Of a stretch of 12,475 nt of DNA, positions 1 to 12,475 are shown one piece after another. This stretch comes from Candidatus Eiseniibacteriota bacterium (GTDB lineage Bacteria; Eisenbacteria; RBG-16-71-46). Within the stretch, counting starts at the first letter, position 1; each line of letters starts with the position of its first letter. The stretch lies in NCBI GenBank assembly GCA_031366795.1, contig JANLOX010000172.1, positions 1-12,475 on the forward strand, in the 5' to 3' direction. A model generated the notes under the pieces. The model saw only the letters and a list, made by a program, of their open reading frames with translations. It ran no database searches and had not been told where the DNA came from. The translations under genes were made by a program, and so were the position numbers.

Positions 1-44
1 TTGCGGGCGATGGTCTGGATACGCTCGGCGAGATTCTCGAACAC
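1..44 (-). CDS. ffh: Signal recognition particle protein Ffh, N-terminal fragment (runs off the window edge)
   Basis: Not in the ORF track. The minus strand from GTG at 44 reads GTG TTC GAG AAT CTC GCC GAG CGT ATC CAG ACC ATC GCC CGC = MFENLAERIQTIAR, matching the typical Ffh N-terminus (MFENLxxRL). Only 14 complete codons are visible. Confidence 0.8.
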   Translation of the reverse strand, partial: MFENLAERIQTIAR

Positions 45-146
45 GCTGGAAGGTTCCGGGTGAGGGCAGGCAGCCGCCACGGCGACCTGTTGGCCGGGCA
101 GCACGATGCGCGGGACCCCCGAAAGGGCTCCCGTGGAAAGCGCGGG

Positions 147-155
147 AACATAACA
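147..155 (-). promoter_or_regulatory. Possible extended -10 promoter element for ffh (TG-T-TATGTT)
   Basis: The only AT-rich patch between rpe and ffh; the minus strand reads caatatgttatgtt. No convincing -35 element. Confidence 0.3.
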
Positions 156-248
156 TATTGCGGGAATAGGGCCGAAACGGCGCGGGGGTGGGAAATACCT
201 CCAACCACGCGGGTTCGCGGGTGGCCCTTGGCCGCCCGGGGCCAACAA

Positions 249-929
249 TCAGGCGCTAATCTCGCTCCTGAGCCCCGCGAGCGCCGCCGCCGGATCGGCC
301 TGCGCGAACACCGCGTTACCCGCCACGAACACATCGGCTCCCGCGGCGCGCGCCGTTGCGGCGGTGCCGGGGCCGATGCCGCCATCGACCTCGATGAGGA
401 ACGAGCCCGCGCCCGAGTCACGCTCCGTGCGGGCGGCGCTGACCTTGTCCATCATGCCGGCCATGAACGCCTGGCCGCCGAAGCCCGGCTCGACCGTCAT
501 CACCAGCAACAGGTCGATGTGCTTGAAGTAGCGCTCGGCCGCCGACAGTGGCGTATTCGGCTTGATCGCGAGGCCCGCGCGCGCGCCCGTCTCCCGCACC
601 GCAGCAAGCACCGCGCGAGGATCCTCGCATGACTCGAGATGCACCGTGAGCTGGTCCGCCCCCGCATCACGAAACGCGCGCAGCATCTTCTCGGGCTGCT
701 CGACCATCAGGTGGACGTCGAGGAACGCTGGCGTCACACGGCGAGCCGCGGCGACCACCAGCGGCCCGAACGTGAGATTGGGCACGAAGCGAAAATCCAT
801 GATGTCGCAATGCACCCAATCGAGCGCGGGATCGATAATGCGTAACGCATCGGCGAGGCGGGTGAAGTCCGCGGAGAGGATCGAGGGGGCTGCGATGGGG
901 CCGCGGAGAGGGTGTGCGATGCCGCTCAT
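249..929 (-). CDS. rpe: Ribulose-phosphate 3-epimerase
   Basis: Motifs APSILSADF, HCDIMD..FVPNLTFG, DVHLMV, LLVMTVEPGFGGQAF and IEVDGGI. The ATG overlaps the upstream stop (ATGA, 926-929). Confidence 0.97.
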   Translation of the reverse strand: MSGIAHPLRGPIAAPSILSADFTRLADALRIIDPALDWVHCDIMDFRFVPNLTFGPLVVAAARRVTPAFLDVHLMVEQPEKMLRAFRDAGADQLTVHLESCEDPRAVLAAVRETGARAGLAIKPNTPLSAAERYFKHIDLLLVMTVEPGFGGQAFMAGMMDKVSAARTERDSGAGSFLIEVDGGIGPGTAATARAAGADVFVAGNAVFAQADPAAALAGLRSEISA

Positions 930-1720
930 CGGATCAATCGTCCCGTCGCCTGCACGAGGATCTGCGTCTGGCGGGTGATGCGCGAGCCGGGTGCCGGATC
1001 CTGGAACACGATCGTGCCGATGGACGGCGCCGCAGGTGGCGTGAAGACGCGGAAGCCGAAGGCTTCGAGCTGGCGGCGTACACCGCCGATCTCGTGCCCA
1101 AGCAGCTCAGGCATCACGAAGCTCTCTTCGATGCCGCCCGTCGAGACGAGCAGGCCCACCGGCGTGTCGCGCGGCAGCACGCTTTCGGCGGGCGGATCGG
1201 TCGAGGCGATCAGCTCGGCGCCGACGTTGTCCGATGGCGCGTGCGTGATGCCGCCGAGTCTGAGGCCGGCTCGCGACAGCAGGTAGGCAGCGGTGCGCAT
1301 GGATTCGCCGAATAGTTCGGGCGCTGAACTGTACTCCTCGCCCAGGCTGACCACGACGCTGATGCGCTTGCGGCCGTTGAAGGGCGATTCGGGCTCGGGA
1401 TCCTGCGACAGGACATACCCGCTCGGTGTCGCGGGGTCGAACCGTTCACCGGCGCGCGACAGCGTGATGCCGCGCGCGGCCATCGTCTTCTCGGCTTCCG
1501 CGAAGGTCAGGTTGGTGATGTCGGGAACGCGCTGTTCGTTGACGCGGTGCACCAGCCGCGGCATCACTACGTTGTTGAACACCAACATGCCGGTGACGAA
1601 CGCCAGCACCGCGAACGCGACCATCGCCGCGAGCGCCTTCGTGCGCCTGCCGCGCGATTGTTTCGGCGCGGGCGCAGCGGGTGGCAGCGGCAATGGGAGC
1701 GGCTCGGGTGACTGGCTCAC
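926..1720 (-). CDS. Membrane-anchored protein with three PASTA domains and no kinase domain
   Basis: Short Pro-rich/basic N-tail, one hydrophobic helix (ALAAMVAFAVLAFVTGMLVF), then three PASTA-like repeats (VPDITNLTFAEA..SQDPEP..VVVSLG; APELFGES..STDPPA..LLVSTG; MPELLGHE..FQDPAPG). The GTG overlaps the rsmB stop (GTGA). Confidence 0.9.
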   Translation of the reverse strand: MSQSPEPLPLPLPPAAPAPKQSRGRRTKALAAMVAFAVLAFVTGMLVFNNVVMPRLVHRVNEQRVPDITNLTFAEAEKTMAARGITLSRAGERFDPATPSGYVLSQDPEPESPFNGRKRISVVVSLGEEYSSAPELFGESMRTAAYLLSRAGLRLGGITHAPSDNVGAELIASTDPPAESVLPRDTPVGLLVSTGGIEESFVMPELLGHEIGGVRRQLEAFGFRVFTPPAAPSIGTIVFQDPAPGSRITRQTQILVQATGRLIR

Positions 1721-4092
1721 GTGAGCTTGAACCTCGCGGCGAAGGCGCCGTCGCAGCCATGGAGTTGTGGCAGCACGCGCATCATGCCGCGCTCATCGAC
1801 GACCGCGTCGGGAAGGATGCCATTGGCGGACTCGAGTTCCATCATCGGCGCCTGCTTCAGGAACTCCTCGACCACTTGCATGGTCTCTTCGGGTTCGAAT
1901 GAGCACACGCTGTAGACCACGATGCCGCCCGTGCGCAGCCGGCGCATGGCCGAGAACAGCAGCTCGACCTGCACGCGCGGCATCTCGCGCAGGATCGGCG
2001 CGCCCTTGCGCCAGCGCGCATCGGCGCGCCGGCCGAGCACGCCAAGCCCCGAGCAGGGGGCATCGACGAGCACGCGATCGAACAGGTCGGGGAAGTCGTA
2101 GGAGCGGCCATCGCCTTCGACCACGCGAATGCTCTTGAGCCCGAGTCGCGCGACGTTCTGGTGGAGCGATTGCGTGCGCGCCGCCTGGCGCTCCATCGCC
2201 CACACTTCGCCATCATCGCCGATCAACTCGGCGATGTGCGTCGACTTGCCGCCGGGTGCCGCGCACATGTCGAGGATTCGCTCGTGCGGCTGCGGCGCCA
2301 GCAGGCGCGCAACGAGGCACTCACTCTCGTCCTGCACGGTGCACAACCCATCGCGGAACGCGGCGAGCGACATCGGCGAGTGATTGCCGTCGATCCACAC
2401 GAGTTCGGGCGACAGCGTCGCGGCTTCGGATTCGGCCCCCTCGGCCTTGAGCGCTTCCATCAATTGCTCGCGCGTGCCCTTCAGGGTGTTCGTGCGCAGG
2501 CCGAGCCGCGCGGGGCGGTTGTTCGCCATCATCAGCGCCCGCGTGGCTTCCACGCCGAAGCGCGCGAGCCAGCGCTCGACGATCCAAACGGGGTGCGAGC
2601 CCCACACCGCGAGCGAGGCCGCATCATCGCCTTGGGGCACGACGAGCGAGTCCTTCTCCTCGGAGATACGCCGCAGCACGCTGTTCACGAGCCCCGCGGT
2701 CCCCGGGTGCCCATAGTGGTTCGCGAGCTTCACCGACTCATCGACCGCCGAATGCACGGGGATGCGGTCGAGGAACATGATCTGGTAAGCGCCCAGGCGC
2801 AGGATGTTCTGGATCCACGGCGGCAACTGGCTGAAGCCGATATGAATGCGGTTCTCGAGCGCATCATCGATACGCCCGCGCCAGCGCAGGGTGCCCTTGA
2901 CCAGTTCATGCATCAGCGAACGATCGACCGGGGACATGCCGTTATCCCCGCCATGCTGCGCATCGAGCAGGCGGTCGCTGAACGCCGAGCGCGTATCGAC
3001 GGCATAGAGGATCTGCAACGCCGCTTCGCGCGGGTTGGACGGCAGCTTCGGCTCGTGATTGTCGCCCGCGCCATCCTGGGACTTGGTGCGGCCCGGGCCC
3101 TTGCGGTGAGGCTTGGGCGGCGGCTTGCGCTTGTCTGCGTACGGGCGATCGTCGCGCGGAGGGCCAGCGGAGCGGCCGCGGGGAGGAGCGCCGGCGCGGT
3201 CGCGGGGCGGGCCTGATCGATCGCGCGGCGGACCAGAACGCTCACGTGGCGGACCGGAGCGATCACGCGGCGGACCGCTGCCCGGCCCACGGGAGTAGGT
3301 GCCGCGCGGGGCGGAACCCGTGCCGAAATTCCGCGGACGCGAACTGTCCGTGCGGACAGTTGAACGCTCGCGCGGGGAAGACGGAGTCTCCCCGGGGATA
3401 GGTCTCCGTGCGCCACTGCTCTGACGCGGCGAGAACGGGCGACCACCGGGACCGGTTGCGCGATCACGTGGCGGGCCACTTCGGGGAGGACCGCTTCCCG
3501 GACGCGGTGAGTACGGACGTCCACTCGGACCGGTTGCGCGATCGCGAGGCGGACCGCTCGGACGCGGCGAATATGGCCGCCCACTTGGACCACTCGTGCG
3601 ATCGCGCGGCGGACCACTGGGACGCAGCGAATATGGCCGTGCGCCGGGACCGCTCGCACGATCACGCGGCGGACCACTCCTCGGTCCACGAGAATACGAA
3701 CTGTCCGTGCGGACACCTGCACGATCGCGCGGCGGCCCGCTCCTCGGCGGCCCACTGCCCGGTCGCGGCGCATACGGTCGCCCGCTCGGACCGCTTGCAC
3801 GATCGCGCGGCGGAGCACTCCGCGGCGGCCCACTGCCCGGTCGCGGCGCATACGGCCGCCCGCTCGGACCGCTTGCACGATCGCGCGGCGGCCCGCTCCT
3901 CGGCGGCCCACTGCCCGGACGCGGCGAATACGGCGGCCCGCTCGGCCTGCGATCCCCGCGGTCATACGCGGGCCGCGAGCGGTTCACCGGACGCGCCGGC
4001 CCGCGGGAAGCGTTGTCTCGCGGCGGGCGGCGGTCTCCACCCGTTGCGGGGCGCTTGCGGCGGGGGTCGTCTGGCTTCTGCTCGTCGGTCAC
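1717..4092 (-). CDS. rsmB: 16S rRNA m5C967 methyltransferase RsmB/Sun with a ~350-aa low-complexity N-terminal extension
   Basis: The core (from about aa 351, nt 3042 down to 1717) has a NusB-like domain (LRLGAYQIMFLDRIPVHSAVDESVKLA), the SAM-binding motif LDMCAAPGGKS, motif IV DAPCSG and motif VI YSVCS. The GTG at 4092 overlaps the fmt stop (GTGA) with GGAG upstream. It sits in the usual def-fmt-rsmB order. Confidence 0.93.
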   Translation of the reverse strand: MTDEQKPDDPRRKRPATGGDRRPPRDNASRGPARPVNRSRPAYDRGDRRPSGPPYSPRPGSGPPRSGPPRDRASGPSGRPYAPRPGSGPPRSAPPRDRASGPSGRPYAPRPGSGPPRSGPPRDRAGVRTDSSYSRGPRSGPPRDRASGPGARPYSLRPSGPPRDRTSGPSGRPYSPRPSGPPRDRATGPSGRPYSPRPGSGPPRSGPPRDRATGPGGRPFSPRQSSGARRPIPGETPSSPRERSTVRTDSSRPRNFGTGSAPRGTYSRGPGSGPPRDRSGPPRERSGPPRDRSGPPRDRAGAPPRGRSAGPPRDDRPYADKRKPPPKPHRKGPGRTKSQDGAGDNHEPKLPSNPREAALQILYAVDTRSAFSDRLLDAQHGGDNGMSPVDRSLMHELVKGTLRWRGRIDDALENRIHIGFSQLPPWIQNILRLGAYQIMFLDRIPVHSAVDESVKLANHYGHPGTAGLVNSVLRRISEEKDSLVVPQGDDAASLAVWGSHPVWIVERWLARFGVEATRALMMANNRPARLGLRTNTLKGTREQLMEALKAEGAESEAATLSPELVWIDGNHSPMSLAAFRDGLCTVQDESECLVARLLAPQPHERILDMCAAPGGKSTHIAELIGDDGEVWAMERQAARTQSLHQNVARLGLKSIRVVEGDGRSYDFPDLFDRVLVDAPCSGLGVLGRRADARWRKGAPILREMPRVQVELLFSAMRRLRTGGIVVYSVCSFEPEETMQVVEEFLKQAPMMELESANGILPDAVVDERGMMRVLPQLHGCDGAFAARFKLT
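3196..3279 (-). repeat. Four tandem 21-bp units encoding SGPPR(D/E)R
   Basis: Translation SGPPRDR SGPPRER SGPPRDR SGPPRDR (RsmB aa 272-299); the units differ at synonymous positions. Confidence 0.9.
3340..3361. repeat. Palindrome AACTGTCCG-TG-CGGACAGTT (copy 1 of a 19-bp direct repeat)
   Basis: Perfect 9-bp inverted arms at 3342-3361. The 19-mer cgaactgtccgtgcggaca (3340-3358) recurs identically at 3697-3715. Confidence 0.85.
3424..3648 (-). repeat. Degenerate 60/78-bp tandem units encoding P(S/G)xRPYSxRP(GSGPPR)SGPPRDRxxG
   Basis: The sequence lines starting at 3541, 3601 and 3661 align with a 60-bp period (atc.cg.ggcggacc.ct). The region encodes two 20-aa units, one 26-aa unit and a partial unit. 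Confidence 0.85.
3697..3715. repeat. Copy 2 of the 19-bp repeat containing the palindrome TGTCCG-TG-CGGACA
   Basis: Identical to 3340-3358, 357 bp away and in the same RsmB reading frame (VRTDSS). Confidence 0.85.
3715..3945 (-). repeat. About three tandem 78-bp units encoding PSGRPYAPRPGSGPPRSGPPRDRASG
   Basis: The anchor acgatcgcgc occurs at 3721, 3799 and 3877 (78-bp period). The units are near-identical and cover RsmB aa 50-126. Confidence 0.92.
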
Positions 4093-5042
4093 GTCGTGAT
4101 CTCCATGCGTTCGAAGTGTTCCTGCTCAGTGAGGCGCACACCGCGCGCCCATTCCGGGGCGGCCATTTCGGCGCGGCCTTCCTGCTTGAGTCTGAGAATG
4201 CGCAGCACGCCGGGGCGGCACGCGACGTCAACGCCATCGGCACCCTGCGCGAGGATCGTGCCGGGCTCTGCAGCGGCGTCGAGCTTGTGTAAGGGCAGCG
4301 CGGAAGTCACCTGCAACCGCCCCTCGCGGAACCTTGTGGTCGCCCCCGGCCACGGCGTGACCGAGCGCTGGTGGTTCCACACGGTCTCAGCGTCGAGCGC
4401 CCAATCGATCAACCCATCGTGCTTCGCCAGTCGCGCGGCATAGGAGCCACCCACGGGCTGCACGGTGCGCGGTGCTGTTCCAGCGTGCGCCATCACCAGG
4501 CTCTCGGCGAGCAGCGGCGCACCGAGTTCGGCCAAGCGCGCGGCGAGGGTCTCGCCATTGTCGTTCGCCTCGATCGGCGCCCAGCGTTGCTGGATGATGT
4601 CGCCGGTGTCGATGCCTTCGTTCATCCAGATCGTCGTGACGCCGCTCGAGGCGCGGCCATCCCACAGCGCGCGCTGGACGGGCGAGGCGCCGCGGTAGTC
4701 GGGCAGCATCGAGCCATGCAGGTTGATGGCGCCCAAGCGCGGCAGCGTCAGCAAGGCGGGCTTCAAGATCGCGCCATACGCGACGACGGCAAACAGGTCG
4801 GCCTTTGTTGCTTCCAGCAGGTTGATCCAGTCGGGCGTGTTGATGCGCTCGGGCTTCAAGACCTCGAGCCCCAGTTCAGTCGCGACCTGCGCCACCGCGG
4901 ACTCGCCCGTGTTGCGGCCGCGGCCGCGCGGCCTGTCGGGCTGCGTCACCACCGCTGCGACATCGCACACGCGCGCGACGGCCAGCAATGCGGGCACTGC
5001 AAATGCCGGTGTGCCCATGAACACAACCCGCGGACGTGTCAG
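4089..5042 (-). CDS. fmt: Methionyl-tRNA formyltransferase (probable CTG start at 5042; the ORF track calls GTG at 5024)
   Basis: Motifs FMGTPAFA, VVTQPDRPRGRG, VAYGAIL, INLHGSMLPDYRGASP, GVTTIWMNEGIDTGDI and PWPGA. Extending to the CTG restores the conserved RVVFMGTP N-terminus. Confidence 0.96.
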   Translation of the reverse strand: MTRPRVVFMGTPAFAVPALLAVARVCDVAAVVTQPDRPRGRGRNTGESAVAQVATELGLEVLKPERINTPDWINLLEATKADLFAVVAYGAILKPALLTLPRLGAINLHGSMLPDYRGASPVQRALWDGRASSGVTTIWMNEGIDTGDIIQQRWAPIEANDNGETLAARLAELGAPLLAESLVMAHAGTAPRTVQPVGGSYAARLAKHDGLIDWALDAETVWNHQRSVTPWPGATTRFREGRLQVTSALPLHKLDAAAEPGTILAQGADGVDVACRPGVLRILRLKQEGRAEMAAPEWARGVRLTEQEHFERMEITT

Positions 5043-5590
5043 AGGTCTTCTCCCATTTCCTGCTTCGGCGAGTGGTCTTCTGGAATTTCACCGCGCGCCA
5101 GCGATTCCAGCGTGCGCCGCAGGAACTGGCGCTTGAGCGGCGACAGCCGGTCCACGAACAGCACACCGTCAATGTGATCGATCTCGTGTTGCAGCGCGCG
5201 GGCGAGGTAGCCCTCGGCGTCCAGCTCGAACGGCTGGCCGTGCTCGTCATGCGCGCGGACGTGAACATTGAGCGAACGCGTGACGTCCTCGTAGATGCCG
5301 GGCATCGACAGGCAGCCCTCCTCGCCCGACTCGGAGCCAGAGCGCGAAGTGATTTCAGGATTCACCAGCGTGTAGATGGCGCGCTCGTCTTCTTCGACGG
5401 GAACATCGACGACGATCACGCGTTGCGCCACGCCGACCTGGTTCGCGGCGAGCCCCACTCCCCGATAGACATGCATCGTTTCATGCATGTCCGCGGCGAG
5501 CCGGCGCAGCTCGTCGTCGAACGCCGTCACCTCGCCGGACTTCTGGCGCAGGACCGGGTCCCCGTAGATGCGTACGGGGCGAATGCTCAT
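5039..5590 (-). CDS. def: Peptide deformylase
   Basis: All three PDF motifs are present: GVGLAANQVG, EGCLS and HEIDH. The ATG overlaps the yajC stop (ATGA). Confidence 0.97.
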   Translation of the reverse strand: MSIRPVRIYGDPVLRQKSGEVTAFDDELRRLAADMHETMHVYRGVGLAANQVGVAQRVIVVDVPVEEDERAIYTLVNPEITSRSGSESGEEGCLSMPGIYEDVTRSLNVHVRAHDEHGQPFELDAEGYLARALQHEIDHIDGVLFVDRLSPLKRQFLRRTLESLARGEIPEDHSPKQEMGEDL

Positions 5591-5913
5591 GCCGGCGCGT
5601 CCGCGCTGATCACCTGTACGATCGCGCTCTTGGCGAACTCGAGCTTCACGTCATCGGCCACCTTGAGGACGGTCTTGGCTTCATCGAGTCCCACCACCAC
5701 GCCGTACATGCCACCGGAGGTCAGTACGCGATCGCCCTTCTTGATCCCCTTGAGCATCTTCTCGAGATCCTTCTGGCGCTTCTGCTGCGGCCGGATGATC
5801 AACAGGTAGATGATCGCGAAGATCGGCAGGAATTGCAGCACCATCATCAGCGTCGACATCATCGGGTTGCCCGGAGTGGCGGCAGCGCCGCCGATCTGTG
5901 CGTATGCGTCCAT
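5587..5913 (-). CDS. yajC: Preprotein translocase subunit YajC
   Basis: Single TM helix followed by IRPQQKRQK and IKKGDRVLTSGGMYG; lies downstream of tgt; AAGGAG ribosome-binding site at 5924-5929 (minus strand). Confidence 0.95.
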   Translation of the reverse strand: MDAYAQIGGAAATPGNPMMSTLMMVLQFLPIFAIIYLLIIRPQQKRQKDLEKMLKGIKKGDRVLTSGGMYGVVVGLDEAKTVLKVADDVKLEFAKSAIVQVISADAPA

Positions 5914-5961
5914 GGGTCAGGTTCTCCTTTTATGAAGAGTGTCGCCCGCGACTCGAATGTC

Positions 5962-10016
<4,055 letters not shown>

Positions 10017-10129
10017 GGGAGCCTCCAGCTGCTGGTCATGGATCGGTGGGGAACTCCGGCAGCCTACCCGACTGCGCGTGAGGGTGCTACGGCGGCTGGG
10101 CCGTTCCCGGTGCCCCGGCGGCCGGTTGT

Positions 10130-11785
10130 GTGGCGGATACCGCCTCGTGTAAACACTTCGCCTATGCCACTCGAGAACTCCCCACGCTGGGCCGGACGCT
10201 GAGCGACCGTAAGCGCGGCGCCGCCGCACTCGTGGCCGCGGGCATCCTGGCGAGCCGCATCTTCGGGCTCGTGCGCCAGCGCGTCATCGCGCACTTTTTC
10301 GGTCAGTCGACCGATGCCGCCGACGCCTTCTTCGCGGCCTTCCGCATTCCAAACTTCCTGCAAAATCTGTTCGGCGAGGGCGTGCTCTCGGCCTCGATGA
10401 TCCCCGAGTACACCCGGCTGGTCGCCGCGGGCAAGCCTGACGAAGCGCGCAAACTCGCGGGCGCCGTGGCGGGATTGCTCGGCGCGCTGGTGCTGGTCGT
10501 GGTGGCCGTGGGCGTGACCTTCGCGCCGCAACTCGTCGGCCTGATCGTGCCGGGCTTCGAAGGCACGCGACGCGCGTTGGCGATTTCGCTCGTGCGCATC
10601 GCCTTCCCCGGCTGCGGTGCGCTGGTGATGTCGGCGTGGTGCCTCGCGATCCTGAACAGCCACCGCCGCTTCCTGCTCGCCTACAGCGCGCCGGTCATCT
10701 GGAACATCTCGATCATCGTCGCCACGCTGTGGCCGCACGGCAACCATATCCCTGAGCAGTTGGTGCTGTGGACCGCCTGGGGCGCCGTGGTCGGCAGCGT
10801 GCTGCAGGTCGCGGTGCAACTGCCGTTGTTGCTGACGCTCACCGGAGGCGTGCGCCTGTCGCTCGACTGGCGCGATTCCCGCGTGCGCATCGTGATCACC
10901 AACTTCGTGCCGGTGTTCATCAGCCGCGGCGTGGTGCAGATCAGCGCCTTCATCGATGCCATGATCGCGAGCCTGCTGCCGGTCGGCGCGGTGGCCGTGA
11001 TCTCCAACGCGCAGATGCTCTACCTGCTGCCGGTCAGCCTGTTCGGCATGTCCGTCGCCGCTGCTGAGTTGCCCGAGATGTCGGAGACCGTCGGTGGCGG
11101 CCCCGAGCGGCTCGAGTCGCTGCGCGCGCGCATCGCCTCGGGCAGCGCGCGCATCGCCTACTTCATCGTGCCTTCGGGCGTGGCGTTCCTGTGCCTCGGT
11201 CACCTGATCGCGGGGCTCGTGCTGCAGTCGGGCGCGTTCTCGCAGCGTGACTCCTACTGGGTGTGGGCGACGCTCGCGGGCTCGACGGTGGGCCTGCTCG
11301 CGACATCCGTCGGCCGCCTGCTGACCTCGACCTACTACGCCTTGAACGATACGCGTACGCCCTTGCGCTTCGCGATGCTCCGCGTGGGACTCACGCTGGC
11401 GCTCGGCTACATCGCCGCGATTTACGGGCCACCACTGTTCCATGTTGACGCGCGCTACGGCACGGCGGGACTCACCGCGAGCGCCGGGATGGCCGGCTGG
11501 GTGGAGTTCATCCTGCTGCGCCGCGGGCTGGCGCGACGTATCGGCGCGTTTGGGATGCCGCCGGGAATGCTGCCGCGGCTGTGGGGCGCGGCGCTGGGCG
11601 CCGCGGCACTCGCGTGGGGCTTGCACATGCTGCTGGGCCCGCACGCGCTGCACGGCGTCGCGCGGCTCGGCGAGGCGGCGTTCGTGCTGGTGGCGTACAC
11701 GGTGGCGTATGGCGCGGCAACGCTGGCGCTCAGGCTGCCGATGGCGCGCGAGCTGTGGGGACGCGTGAGCCGCTCGAGCCGCTGA
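10130..11785 (+). CDS. murJ: Lipid II flippase MurJ (MviN); start position uncertain
   Basis: Motifs SRIFGLVRQRVIAHFFG, ADAFFAAFRIPNFLQNLFGEG, LYLLPVSLFG and YYALNDTRTP, with many TM segments. Confidence 0.95.
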   Translation: MADTASCKHFAYATRELPTLGRTLSDRKRGAAALVAAGILASRIFGLVRQRVIAHFFGQSTDAADAFFAAFRIPNFLQNLFGEGVLSASMIPEYTRLVAAGKPDEARKLAGAVAGLLGALVLVVVAVGVTFAPQLVGLIVPGFEGTRRALAISLVRIAFPGCGALVMSAWCLAILNSHRRFLLAYSAPVIWNISIIVATLWPHGNHIPEQLVLWTAWGAVVGSVLQVAVQLPLLLTLTGGVRLSLDWRDSRVRIVITNFVPVFISRGVVQISAFIDAMIASLLPVGAVAVISNAQMLYLLPVSLFGMSVAAAELPEMSETVGGGPERLESLRARIASGSARIAYFIVPSGVAFLCLGHLIAGLVLQSGAFSQRDSYWVWATLAGSTVGLLATSVGRLLTSTYYALNDTRTPLRFAMLRVGLTLALGYIAAIYGPPLFHVDARYGTAGLTASAGMAGWVEFILLRRGLARRIGAFGMPPGMLPRLWGAALGAAALAWGLHMLLGPHALHGVARLGEAAFVLVAYTVAYGAATLALRLPMARELWGRVSRSSR

Positions 11786-11798
11786 TGGATTCGCGGTA

Positions 11799-11827
11799 GC
11801 GGCGGGGCGCGTAACGGCGCCCGCCGC
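11799..11827 (+). terminator. GC-rich hairpin after murJ (possible terminator or 3' stabiliser)
   Basis: Arms gcggcggggcgc and gcgcccgccgc form an 11-bp stem with one bulged G, starting 14 nt after the stop. There is no U-tract. Confidence 0.45.
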
Positions 11828-11844
11828 ACGTGGCCGGCGCTAGC

Positions 11845-11874
11845 TTGACCCTCCCCAAGCCAGACTCCTAAAGT
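11845..11874 (+). promoter_or_regulatory. Sigma70-like promoter for acpS and the biotin carboxylase gene
   Basis: TTGACC (11845-11850), an 18-nt spacer, then TAAAGT (11869-11874). Confidence 0.6.
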
Positions 11875-11910
11875 CGCGGTTCACTCTCATTCATGCGGTT
11901 CGGAGGCGTC

Positions 11911-12291
11911 TTGGCCGTTCGCGGCATTGGCATCGATGTGGTTCAGGTCGACCGCATCAAGGGCTCGCTCGAGCGCTTTGGCGCGCGCTTCGAGGCGCGC
12001 GTGTTCACCGAGGGCGAGCTCGAGTACGCGCGCCGCCACAAGGACCCGCTGCCGCACCTGGCCGCGCGCTTCGCCGCGAAAGAAGCGTTGTTCAAGGCGA
12101 TCGGCACCGGCCTCTCCGGCGGTGTCGGCTGGAAGGACACCGAAGTGATCCAGCCGGGCGGCCGCCAGCCGCAACTCGCCCTGCACGGCATGGCCGCTGA
12201 AGTGTTCCGCACGTTGGGTGCCACGCGCACGCACCTGACGCTCGCGCATGACGCCGGCGTCGCGGTCGCGTGCGTGGTGATCGAGGACTGA
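11911..12291 (+). CDS. acpS: Holo-[acyl-carrier-protein] synthase (4'-phosphopantetheinyl transferase)
   Basis: Motifs [32 protein letters not shown] and HLTLAHD. TTG at 11911, with GGAGG at 11902-11906, is preferred over the ATG at 11893. Confidence 0.95.
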
Positions 12292-12475
12292 TGAAGCGCC
12301 TGCACCGCATTTTGGTCGCCAACCGTGGCGAGATCGCCGTGCGCGTCATTCGCACGGTGCGCGAACTGGGGCTCACCTCGATCGCGGTGTACAGCGAGCC
12401 CGACCGCGACGCCTATCACGTGGTGATGGCCGACGAGGCGTACGCGATCGGCGCCGGGCCTTCGAGCGACAGCTA
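12291..12475 (+). CDS. Biotin carboxylase subunit of an acyl-CoA carboxylase (AccC/PccA/MccA-like), N-terminal fragment
   Basis: Not in the ORF track. Reads [54 protein letters not shown], containing the ANRGEIA signature. The ATG overlaps the acpS stop (TGATG). The exact subtype cannot be determined from ~61 aa. Confidence 0.92.

Follow-up and report, generated by a model that had tools for sequence, protein, structure and literature searches.

In Escherichia coli, the 16S rRNA 5-methylcytidine 967 (m5C967) methyltransferase RsmB (Fmu, Sun; PDB 1SQF/1SQG) is described as binding the 3' domain of nascent 16S rRNA during transcription, where it aids uS7 loading and blocks uS19 until methylation frees it, with weak binding at high salt (Wei & Woodson 2026, PMC13674486). 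Other folded bacterial RNA enzymes carry charged, low-complexity tails rich in Arg, Gly and Pro, namely E. coli CsdA, whose intrinsically disordered regions (IDRs) build an rrn-associated condensate (bioRxiv 10.64898/2026.09.17.752289), Pseudomonas aeruginosa RhlE1 and RhlE2, whose IDRs contribute to RNA binding and to the activity of the core as well as to condensation (PMC11260450), and Bacteroides thetaiotaomicron Rho, whose IDR condensation is governed by short conserved motifs (PMC13269538). Here we describe an RsmB bearing a 350-residue basic, repetitive N-terminal tail and a family-specific sequence motif, encoded on contig JANLOX010000172.1 (assembly GCA_031366795.1) of a Candidatus Eiseniibacteriota bacterium; the 12,475-nt stretch analyzed, positions 1 to 12,475 of that contig, is referred to as the window, and unprefixed coordinates refer to it. 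In contrast to the 429-residue 1SQF, which has no such tail, and to CsdA, RhlE and Rho, which are helicases or a terminator, the tailed protein is an rRNA methyltransferase; IDR-aided RNA binding and condensation have been demonstrated for CsdA, RhlE and Rho.

The rsmB coding sequence occupies positions 1717-4092 of the minus strand (GTG start, 791 residues) within the gene order tgt-yajC-def-fmt-rsmB-PASTA-rpe, the position after def-fmt being shared with E. coli. Its core (residues 351-791) has the three domains of the E. coli enzyme: a NusB-like domain (PF01029, residues 353-477; 2662-3036, minus strand), a ferredoxin-like domain (RsmF-B_ferredox, residues 500-568) and an S-adenosylmethionine (SAM)-dependent m5C methyltransferase domain (Methyltr_RsmB-F, residues 596-789; 1726-2307, minus strand). 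Within the latter, the SAM-binding motif DMCAAPGGKS is found at residues 608-617 and both catalytic cysteines are kept, C680 and C730 aligning with C325 and C375 of 1SQF; the residue preceding the second one is Val rather than Thr, both here and in most aligned relatives. The protein exceeds both NCBIfam cut-offs for RsmB (NF011494, 392 bits against 319; TIGR00563, 329 against 269), RsmF models score far under their cut-off, and the best PDB match is E. coli RsmB (E 1e-51). By every testable family feature the predicted product is an intact RsmB, in agreement with the original prediction, made from the sequence of this window, of a 791-residue open reading frame (ORF) with a recognizable core from about residue 351.

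Nop2/NSUN1 and fibrillarin both carry long extensions, and Nop2/NSUN1 share the m5C catalytic fold with RsmB (PDB 8esq, 8fkt and 6elz), the match covering only residues 493-789. Unlike RsmF and Nop2, the RsmB described here has an N-terminal NusB-like domain ahead of its methyltransferase domain, and it further differs from Nop2/NSUN1 and fibrillarin in its target and domain order and in a tail that lacks RGG boxes and has no detectable homology to theirs; the likeness between the extensions is therefore convergent. By its sequence features the protein is neither of the glycine-arginine-rich (GAR) type nor of the Nop2 type, and the analogy initially drawn with the RGG domain of fibrillarin did not hold up, as a pattern count over the 350 tail residues found no RGG and six RG, although some relatives' tails are RG-rich (up to 7-8 RG per 100 residues).

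The tail itself (residues 1-350; 3043-4092, minus strand) is composed mainly of Pro (84 residues, 24%), Arg (71, 20%), Gly (52, 15%) and Ser (45, 13%), followed by Asp (24) and Ala (21), with only seven Ile, Leu or Val and 12 Tyr or Phe (3.4% aromatics). It has a net charge of +50 (+0.14 per residue) and an isoelectric point of 11.9, as compared with 5.9 for the core. Its hydropathy of 0.30 lies on the disordered side of the Uversky boundary (0.46), and in an AlphaFold2 model of a relative (P0003, 66 sequences) the core folds confidently while the predicted local distance difference test (pLDDT) score stays below 50 over most of residues 1-56, so that the basic, hydrophobic-poor and disordered character first proposed for the tail is consistent with both predictions. 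Three tandem repeat blocks were located by DNA repeat search, all on the minus strand: a 78-nt (26-residue) unit in 2.9 copies at 3718-3945, a 60-nt (20-residue) unit in 3.0 copies at 3499-3679, and a 21-nt (7-residue, SGPPRDR) unit in 4.1 copies at 3191-3277. The motif counts originally given, about 11 SGPPRDR-type and about seven aromatic elements, were reproduced: SGPPRDR has nine exact copies, GPPR[DE]R has 10 and a looser pattern matches at 11 places, while [YF][SA]xR[PQ] occurs seven times (residues 55, 81, 107, 154, 174, 194 and 220) at a spacing of 20-47 residues. A six-frame search of the whole genome matched SGPPRDR at 10 places, nine of them inside the RsmB tail, which argues against a chance array; the tenth lies in the tail of RsmG. 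A likeness of YSPRPSG to the heptads of the RNA polymerase II C-terminal domain was considered and rejected, as other family tails use unrelated units.

Several lines of evidence indicate that this tail is made. The GTG codon (4092-4090) overlaps the TGA of fmt as GTGA, with GGAG 8 nt upstream at 4101-4104, an arrangement (4089-4104, minus strand) already pointed out in the original prediction and from which translational coupling may be expected. Among the 12 candidate in-frame starts within the first 400 codons, it forms the best duplex with the anti-Shine-Dalgarno sequence (-6.4 kcal/mol), followed by M386 (-5.7 kcal/mol). The only other ATG, GTG or TTG codons in the first 390 are V36, L359 and M386, and initiation at either of the latter two would truncate the NusB-like domain. 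For comparison, the core was searched in 61 genomes, of which 60 gave a match; five genomes with fragments or no match (G006, G008, G035, G049 and G052) were left out of the locus set, and seven of the 56 loci examined were dropped where the contig ends before fmt, leaving 49. At 42 of these 49 loci with fmt in view, a start overlaps the stop of fmt at -4 and leads, in frame and without interruption, into the core; within the window's own family this is so at 29 of 30, over 28 distinct tail lengths of 26-467 residues; the single exception holds a run of N. The extension is in this sense lineage-wide, as the ortholog comparison initially suggested was meant to establish. Relative to the nearest relative (G001), all six indels are multiples of three (33, 51, 3, 3, 60 and 24 nt), 105 of the 136 differences lie at third codon positions, and the ratio of nonsynonymous to synonymous substitution rates (dN/dS) is 0.09 in the tail and 0.047 in the core. 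By these measures the tail is under purifying selection, and it is very likely both real and translated, which strengthens what had been advanced as probable.

The repeat array is likewise covered by Logan contigs, which come from two studies and four runs, with the reservation that the runs matching best are possibly the source sample itself. None of the data sets listed as containing the sequence is an RNA one. One contig of 668 nt matches 2906-3573 with zero mismatches, a 1119-nt contig from the second study spans 2849-3925 with a 42-nt duplication, and contigs from two runs of one study carry 42 extra nt in the 21-nt repeat block; all four length-changing joints within the tail are net in frame. 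None of the listed contigs spans the whole 3.4-kb stretch. Furthermore, four genomes assembled in 1-10 contigs (G015, G022, G014 and G016) carry RsmB tails of 96-395 residues.

Comparison of the family's tails revealed a strongly conserved element that the original prediction had overlooked. This 13-residue motif, with the near-invariant family consensus GQAxA[IVE]NRSRP[IL]Y, is present in 27 of the 30 family tails and in none of the 19 outside the family (0.08 expected after shuffling). Of 91 database homologues whose tails reach at least 40 residues, 84 have it as well; this set overlaps the genomes, and two of 120 entries were dropped from it for want of an anchor. The codons of the motif vary synonymously, which indicates that selection acts on the peptide, and it lies anywhere from 25 to 315 residues ahead of the core. 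In the window's species the motif is found at residues 36-43 as VNRSRPAY (3964-3987, minus strand), its first half being degenerate (GPARPVNRSRPAY). A profile of the motif searched among 1.84 billion representatives gave seven matches, five of which run into the start of an RsmB and two of which are tail-like fragments; there were no matches to PDB at E up to 10, and none in a Pfam search of 26 motif members. In these searches the motif appears to be found only in RsmB.

Three further ideas about the motif were examined. As an address common to several proteins it was rejected, since NR[SP]RPxY was matched a single time in the six-frame translation of the genome and a DNA pattern over the 61 genomes gave 43 matches, of which 28 lie in rsmB, one is unplaced at a contig edge and 14 fall elsewhere, equal to the 14 obtained with a reversed control. 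A likeness to the GQAGAI stretch and C-terminal tail of uS9 found no support, as the uS9 of this genome reads GQSGAL and ends in ARKRFQFSKR, and no PDB chain matched. Lastly, for docking on the enzyme's own core, the motif region of the P0003 model (within residues 30-48) has a pLDDT below 50 and the peptide-core complex scored 0.02, and these models are not used as evidence of binding.

Around this fixed element, tail length and repeats vary widely. Tails range from 0 to 467 residues over the 49 loci, with at least 200 residues in 19; in the family they range from 26 to 467, with at least 200 residues in 13 of 30 and 26-150 in the other 17, so that a long array is not required, and within one genus they measure 88 and 350 residues. 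In a quick tree of 47 RsmB cores (two loci with broken cores, L060 and L076, being left out), tails of at least 270 residues fall into six separate groups of the family, several with short-tailed sisters and each with a different repeat unit, and into three further groups outside it. All 18 long tails measured have a net charge per residue of +0.06 to +0.17, with 18-31% Arg. Judged from these sequences, the repeats have expanded repeatedly from different units while converging on similar charge. A wider comparison of 32 long RsmB-like proteins, taken from the best 8000 candidates scored, comprised 16 close relatives (48-69% identity), two proteins with other low-complexity tails (P0134 and P0136) and a remainder of mostly fusions or eukaryotic proteins, in addition to P0142 and P0148, whose cores are about 33% identical and which likewise have N-terminal basic repeat tails of variable length, built from unrelated units and lacking the NRSRPxY motif. 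Length differs even inside 90% clusters (731-835 residues in one; 616-796 among the tailed members listed in that of P0148, one member of which is named Ca. Faecivicinus) and between strains. The RsmB tail as such thus appears to be a recurring, convergent feature.

Other conserved stretches were seen in tails of these relatives. The sister family f3 (L062, L063, L065 and L066; P0132 and P0133) has its own, R[FH]ARP[QT]R[FY]DAxTG, about 30-60 residues ahead of the core in long tails; one clade (L052, L055, L050 and L057) shares an RWRRDGxPS-type stretch, and genus g9 (L036 and L041) an RxERRxGDPxSPQR-type one. One genome (G023) has two rsmB copies, one with the NRSRPxY motif and one without (L027 and L052), and the core in G022 (L060) is interrupted by a frameshift that may be a sequencing error.

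RsmB is not the only RNA factor of this genome with such a tail. A crude gene-calling and composition screen for stretches of at least 50 Arg-rich residues with low hydrophobicity flagged 15 of 2634 coding-like ORFs, eight of them RNA factors: a RluB/RluF/RsuA-type pseudouridine synthase with an S4 domain (384 residues flagged), RsmB (344), Jag/KhpB (290), RsmG (185), a DEAD helicase at its C-terminus (108), Rho (89), an S1 protein (79) and RNase III (65). The remaining seven are QueG, a DUF4384 protein, a histidine kinase, an aldo-keto reductase, a P-type ATPase, FtsH and a BNR protein, several of which perhaps reflect sequence upstream of a wrongly called start. The five longest stretches all belong to RNA factors (those of the RluB-type enzyme, RsmB, KhpB, RsmG and the DEAD helicase), a count not baselined against the share of RNA genes in the genome. 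Across the family, RsmG tails range from 20 to 276 residues and reach at least 100 in 13 of 23 usable loci (two of 25 dropped at contig ends), lengths that may be high because the furthest start was taken; RluB-type tails measure 102-437 residues in all 19 complete family loci (five of 24 left out as incomplete) and 8-32 in six sister-family loci. On reading the RluD-type, RlmD-type, RsmD and RsmI frames, as well as two of RsmE and two of RsmH, no such tail was seen, with one RsmH start ambiguous; RsmA lies at a contig edge and its N-terminus was left out of the reading, and the queries used for the RlmN and SpoU families gave no match in the genome. In the table of one review (PMC13602947), m5C967 is listed as early and pseudouridines (psi) 2604/2605 as early/intermediate, while m2G966, m4Cm1402 and psi1911/1915/1917 are late; RsmG is absent from this table. 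The tailed rRNA enzymes fit an early-acting pattern, over very few genes.

Several of these genes have features of their own. RsmG (L099:5950-7293, plus strand) has a tail of about 200 residues rich in Arg, Pro, Gly and Asp at its N-terminus, and the S4-domain pseudouridine synthase (L100:768-2678, minus strand) a C-terminal repeat tail of about 390 residues that is found family-wide. RNase III (L101:560-2410, plus strand; 616 residues) combines a basic N-terminal extension of about 100 residues with an acidic, Pro-rich C-terminal one of about 240, and Jag/KhpB (L099:718-2334, plus strand) has a charged repeat insertion of about 300 residues between its Jag_N and C-terminal domains. The Rho-like ORF (L111:350-1633, plus strand) starts with 140 low-complexity residues and reaches the contig end, and a Pfam scan gave no Rho N-terminal or RNA-binding match. 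FtsH (L114:231-2921, minus strand) contains an intein inside its AAA domain (PF14890, residues 324-503).

To account for these observations we propose, at about an even chance of being right, that the polycationic disordered tail acts as a flexible tether that raises capture of nascent 16S rRNA, while the motif docks on a partner. For an enzyme that acts on nascent 16S rRNA, it is reasonable to infer that a tail with a net charge of +50 binds RNA. The Arg-rich repeats and their spaced aromatics would attach to naked rRNA irrespective of its sequence; joined to an acidic core, so long a polycation should enlarge the radius of capture and prolong the stay on naked rRNA. In the brief interval that precedes uS19 binding, when RsmB would methylate C967 and chaperone uS7 loading, the tail would raise both the on-rate and the residence time of the enzyme on the 3' domain of nascent 16S rRNA. 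Since its distance to the core varies so widely, the motif would bind in trans, either to protein (a ribosomal protein or the machinery of rrn transcription) or to an element of the rRNA. Repeat number would be a loosely tuned avidity setting, altered by in-frame slippage, and the same chemistry would, as a by-product, let the protein enter rRNA-rich foci as a client.

A number of points weigh against this proposal. The motif of the window's own species lacks its conserved Q and A, and three family tails, of 26 and 46 (G011 and G013) and of 431 residues, have no motif at all, indicating that neither tail length nor motif is strictly required. Two small out-of-frame indels (3082 and 3119) occur in the tail, each in one contig of one run. 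The composition screen demands Arg and so favors sequences resembling RNA binders. Across genomes there is only a weak correlation of tail length among the three enzymes RsmB, RsmG and RluB-type (rho 0.40-0.57 over 14-16 data points that are not independent), and in G043 an RsmB tail of 376 residues coexists with an RluB-type tail of eight.

Among the alternatives, the one that fares best, although we consider it rather unlikely, is that the tails of RsmB, RsmG, the RluB-type enzyme, the DEAD helicase, KhpB and Rho jointly form, or serve as addresses to, a nucleolus-like compartment at the rrn operons that depends on RNA, with the motif regulating entry or acting in autoinhibition. The presence of similar tails on several RNA factors of one genome and, for RsmG and the RluB-type enzyme, across the family speaks for it, as do the early or early/intermediate timing of m5C967 and psi2604/2605 relative to the late modifications of the untailed RsmD, RsmH, RsmI and RluD, and the precedents of CsdA and Rho. 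On the other side, a tail without RGG, with few aromatics and with high Pro is unlikely to phase-separate by itself, and at most RNA-driven coacervation or client behavior is expected of it at +0.14 net charge per residue. The weak coordination of tail lengths is a further point against joint action, and the main text of the CsdA preprint does not mention RsmB, RsmG or RluB (bioRxiv 10.64898/2026.09.17.752289). A nucleolus-like condensate role for the RsmB tail is plausible by analogy. In model bacteria RsmB is a low-abundance enzyme and hence a poor candidate for a condensate scaffold.

It is also unlikely that only the motif and a basic character are selected, the hundreds of repeat residues having arisen by slippage and persisting, without consequence for function, where a free terminus tolerates them. 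The spread of tail lengths within one family and even one genus, their differences inside 90% clusters and between strains, and the unrelated repeat units of different groups are all consistent with such drift. Yet the low dN/dS extends across the whole tail, beyond the motif alone, long tails concentrate on RNA factors rather than on random proteins, and charge and Arg content converge over independent expansions, with the caveat that GC-rich repeats favor Arg, Pro, Gly and Ala codons anyway. Finally, it is highly improbable that the tail is not made, through initiation near the core or because the array is an assembly artifact: M386 is preceded by GGGG, relatives' database entries are often called at 441-470 residues and the full 3.4-kb stretch is not covered by any one listed contig, but a start at M386 would remove residues 353-385 of the NusB-like domain, and frame conservation, dN/dS, the motif, the contigs crossing the array and the tails of the least fragmented genomes all speak for a translated tail.

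Of the neighboring genes, fmt (4089-5042, minus strand), upstream of rsmB, probably starts at a CTG that overlaps the def stop as CTGA, with GGAG upstream, and many of 27 family loci share this CTGA/NTGA junction. Downstream, a gene at 926-1720 (minus strand), which overlaps the rsmB stop through a GTGA, encodes a membrane protein with three PASTA domains and without a kinase, and sits between rsmB and rpe. Elsewhere in the window, ORFs for an M16-family peptidase (7116-10229, minus strand) and MurJ (10130-11785, plus strand) overlap head to head, the true start of each probably being further downstream.

Basic tails on bacterial RNA enzymes are in general an already known idea; in a limited collection of literature, our search returned no paper on disordered extensions of RsmB or on such tails of RluB. 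What appears new from these comparisons is the RsmB-specific, near-invariant motif, the repeated and independent expansion of tails with convergent charge, and the presence, within a single family, of tails on RsmG and the RluB-type enzyme alongside those on RsmB. For annotation, these data indicate that gene callers often cut RsmB tails off. In the most far-reaching reading, which we regard as doubtful, this family of Eisenbacteria would address its early rRNA-maturation enzymes (RsmB, RsmG, the RluB-type synthase and the DEAD helicase), via independently expanded Arg-rich tails, to a constitutive nucleolus-like compartment at the rrn operons, and the motif would be an undescribed docking signal coupling RsmB to the machinery of rRNA transcription or early 30S assembly. 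RsmB has only recently been reported as a cotranscriptional assembly chaperone of weak affinity at high salt (PMC13674486), and the nucleolus-like condensate of CsdA is similarly recent (bioRxiv 10.64898/2026.09.17.752289). Against this background the family amounts to an allelic series made by nature, its RsmB tails running from 26 to 467 residues on a core that is 61-98% identical and with one fixed motif, which makes it possible to test in E. coli whether such tails may act as tethers or as condensate addresses, and what the motif may bind.

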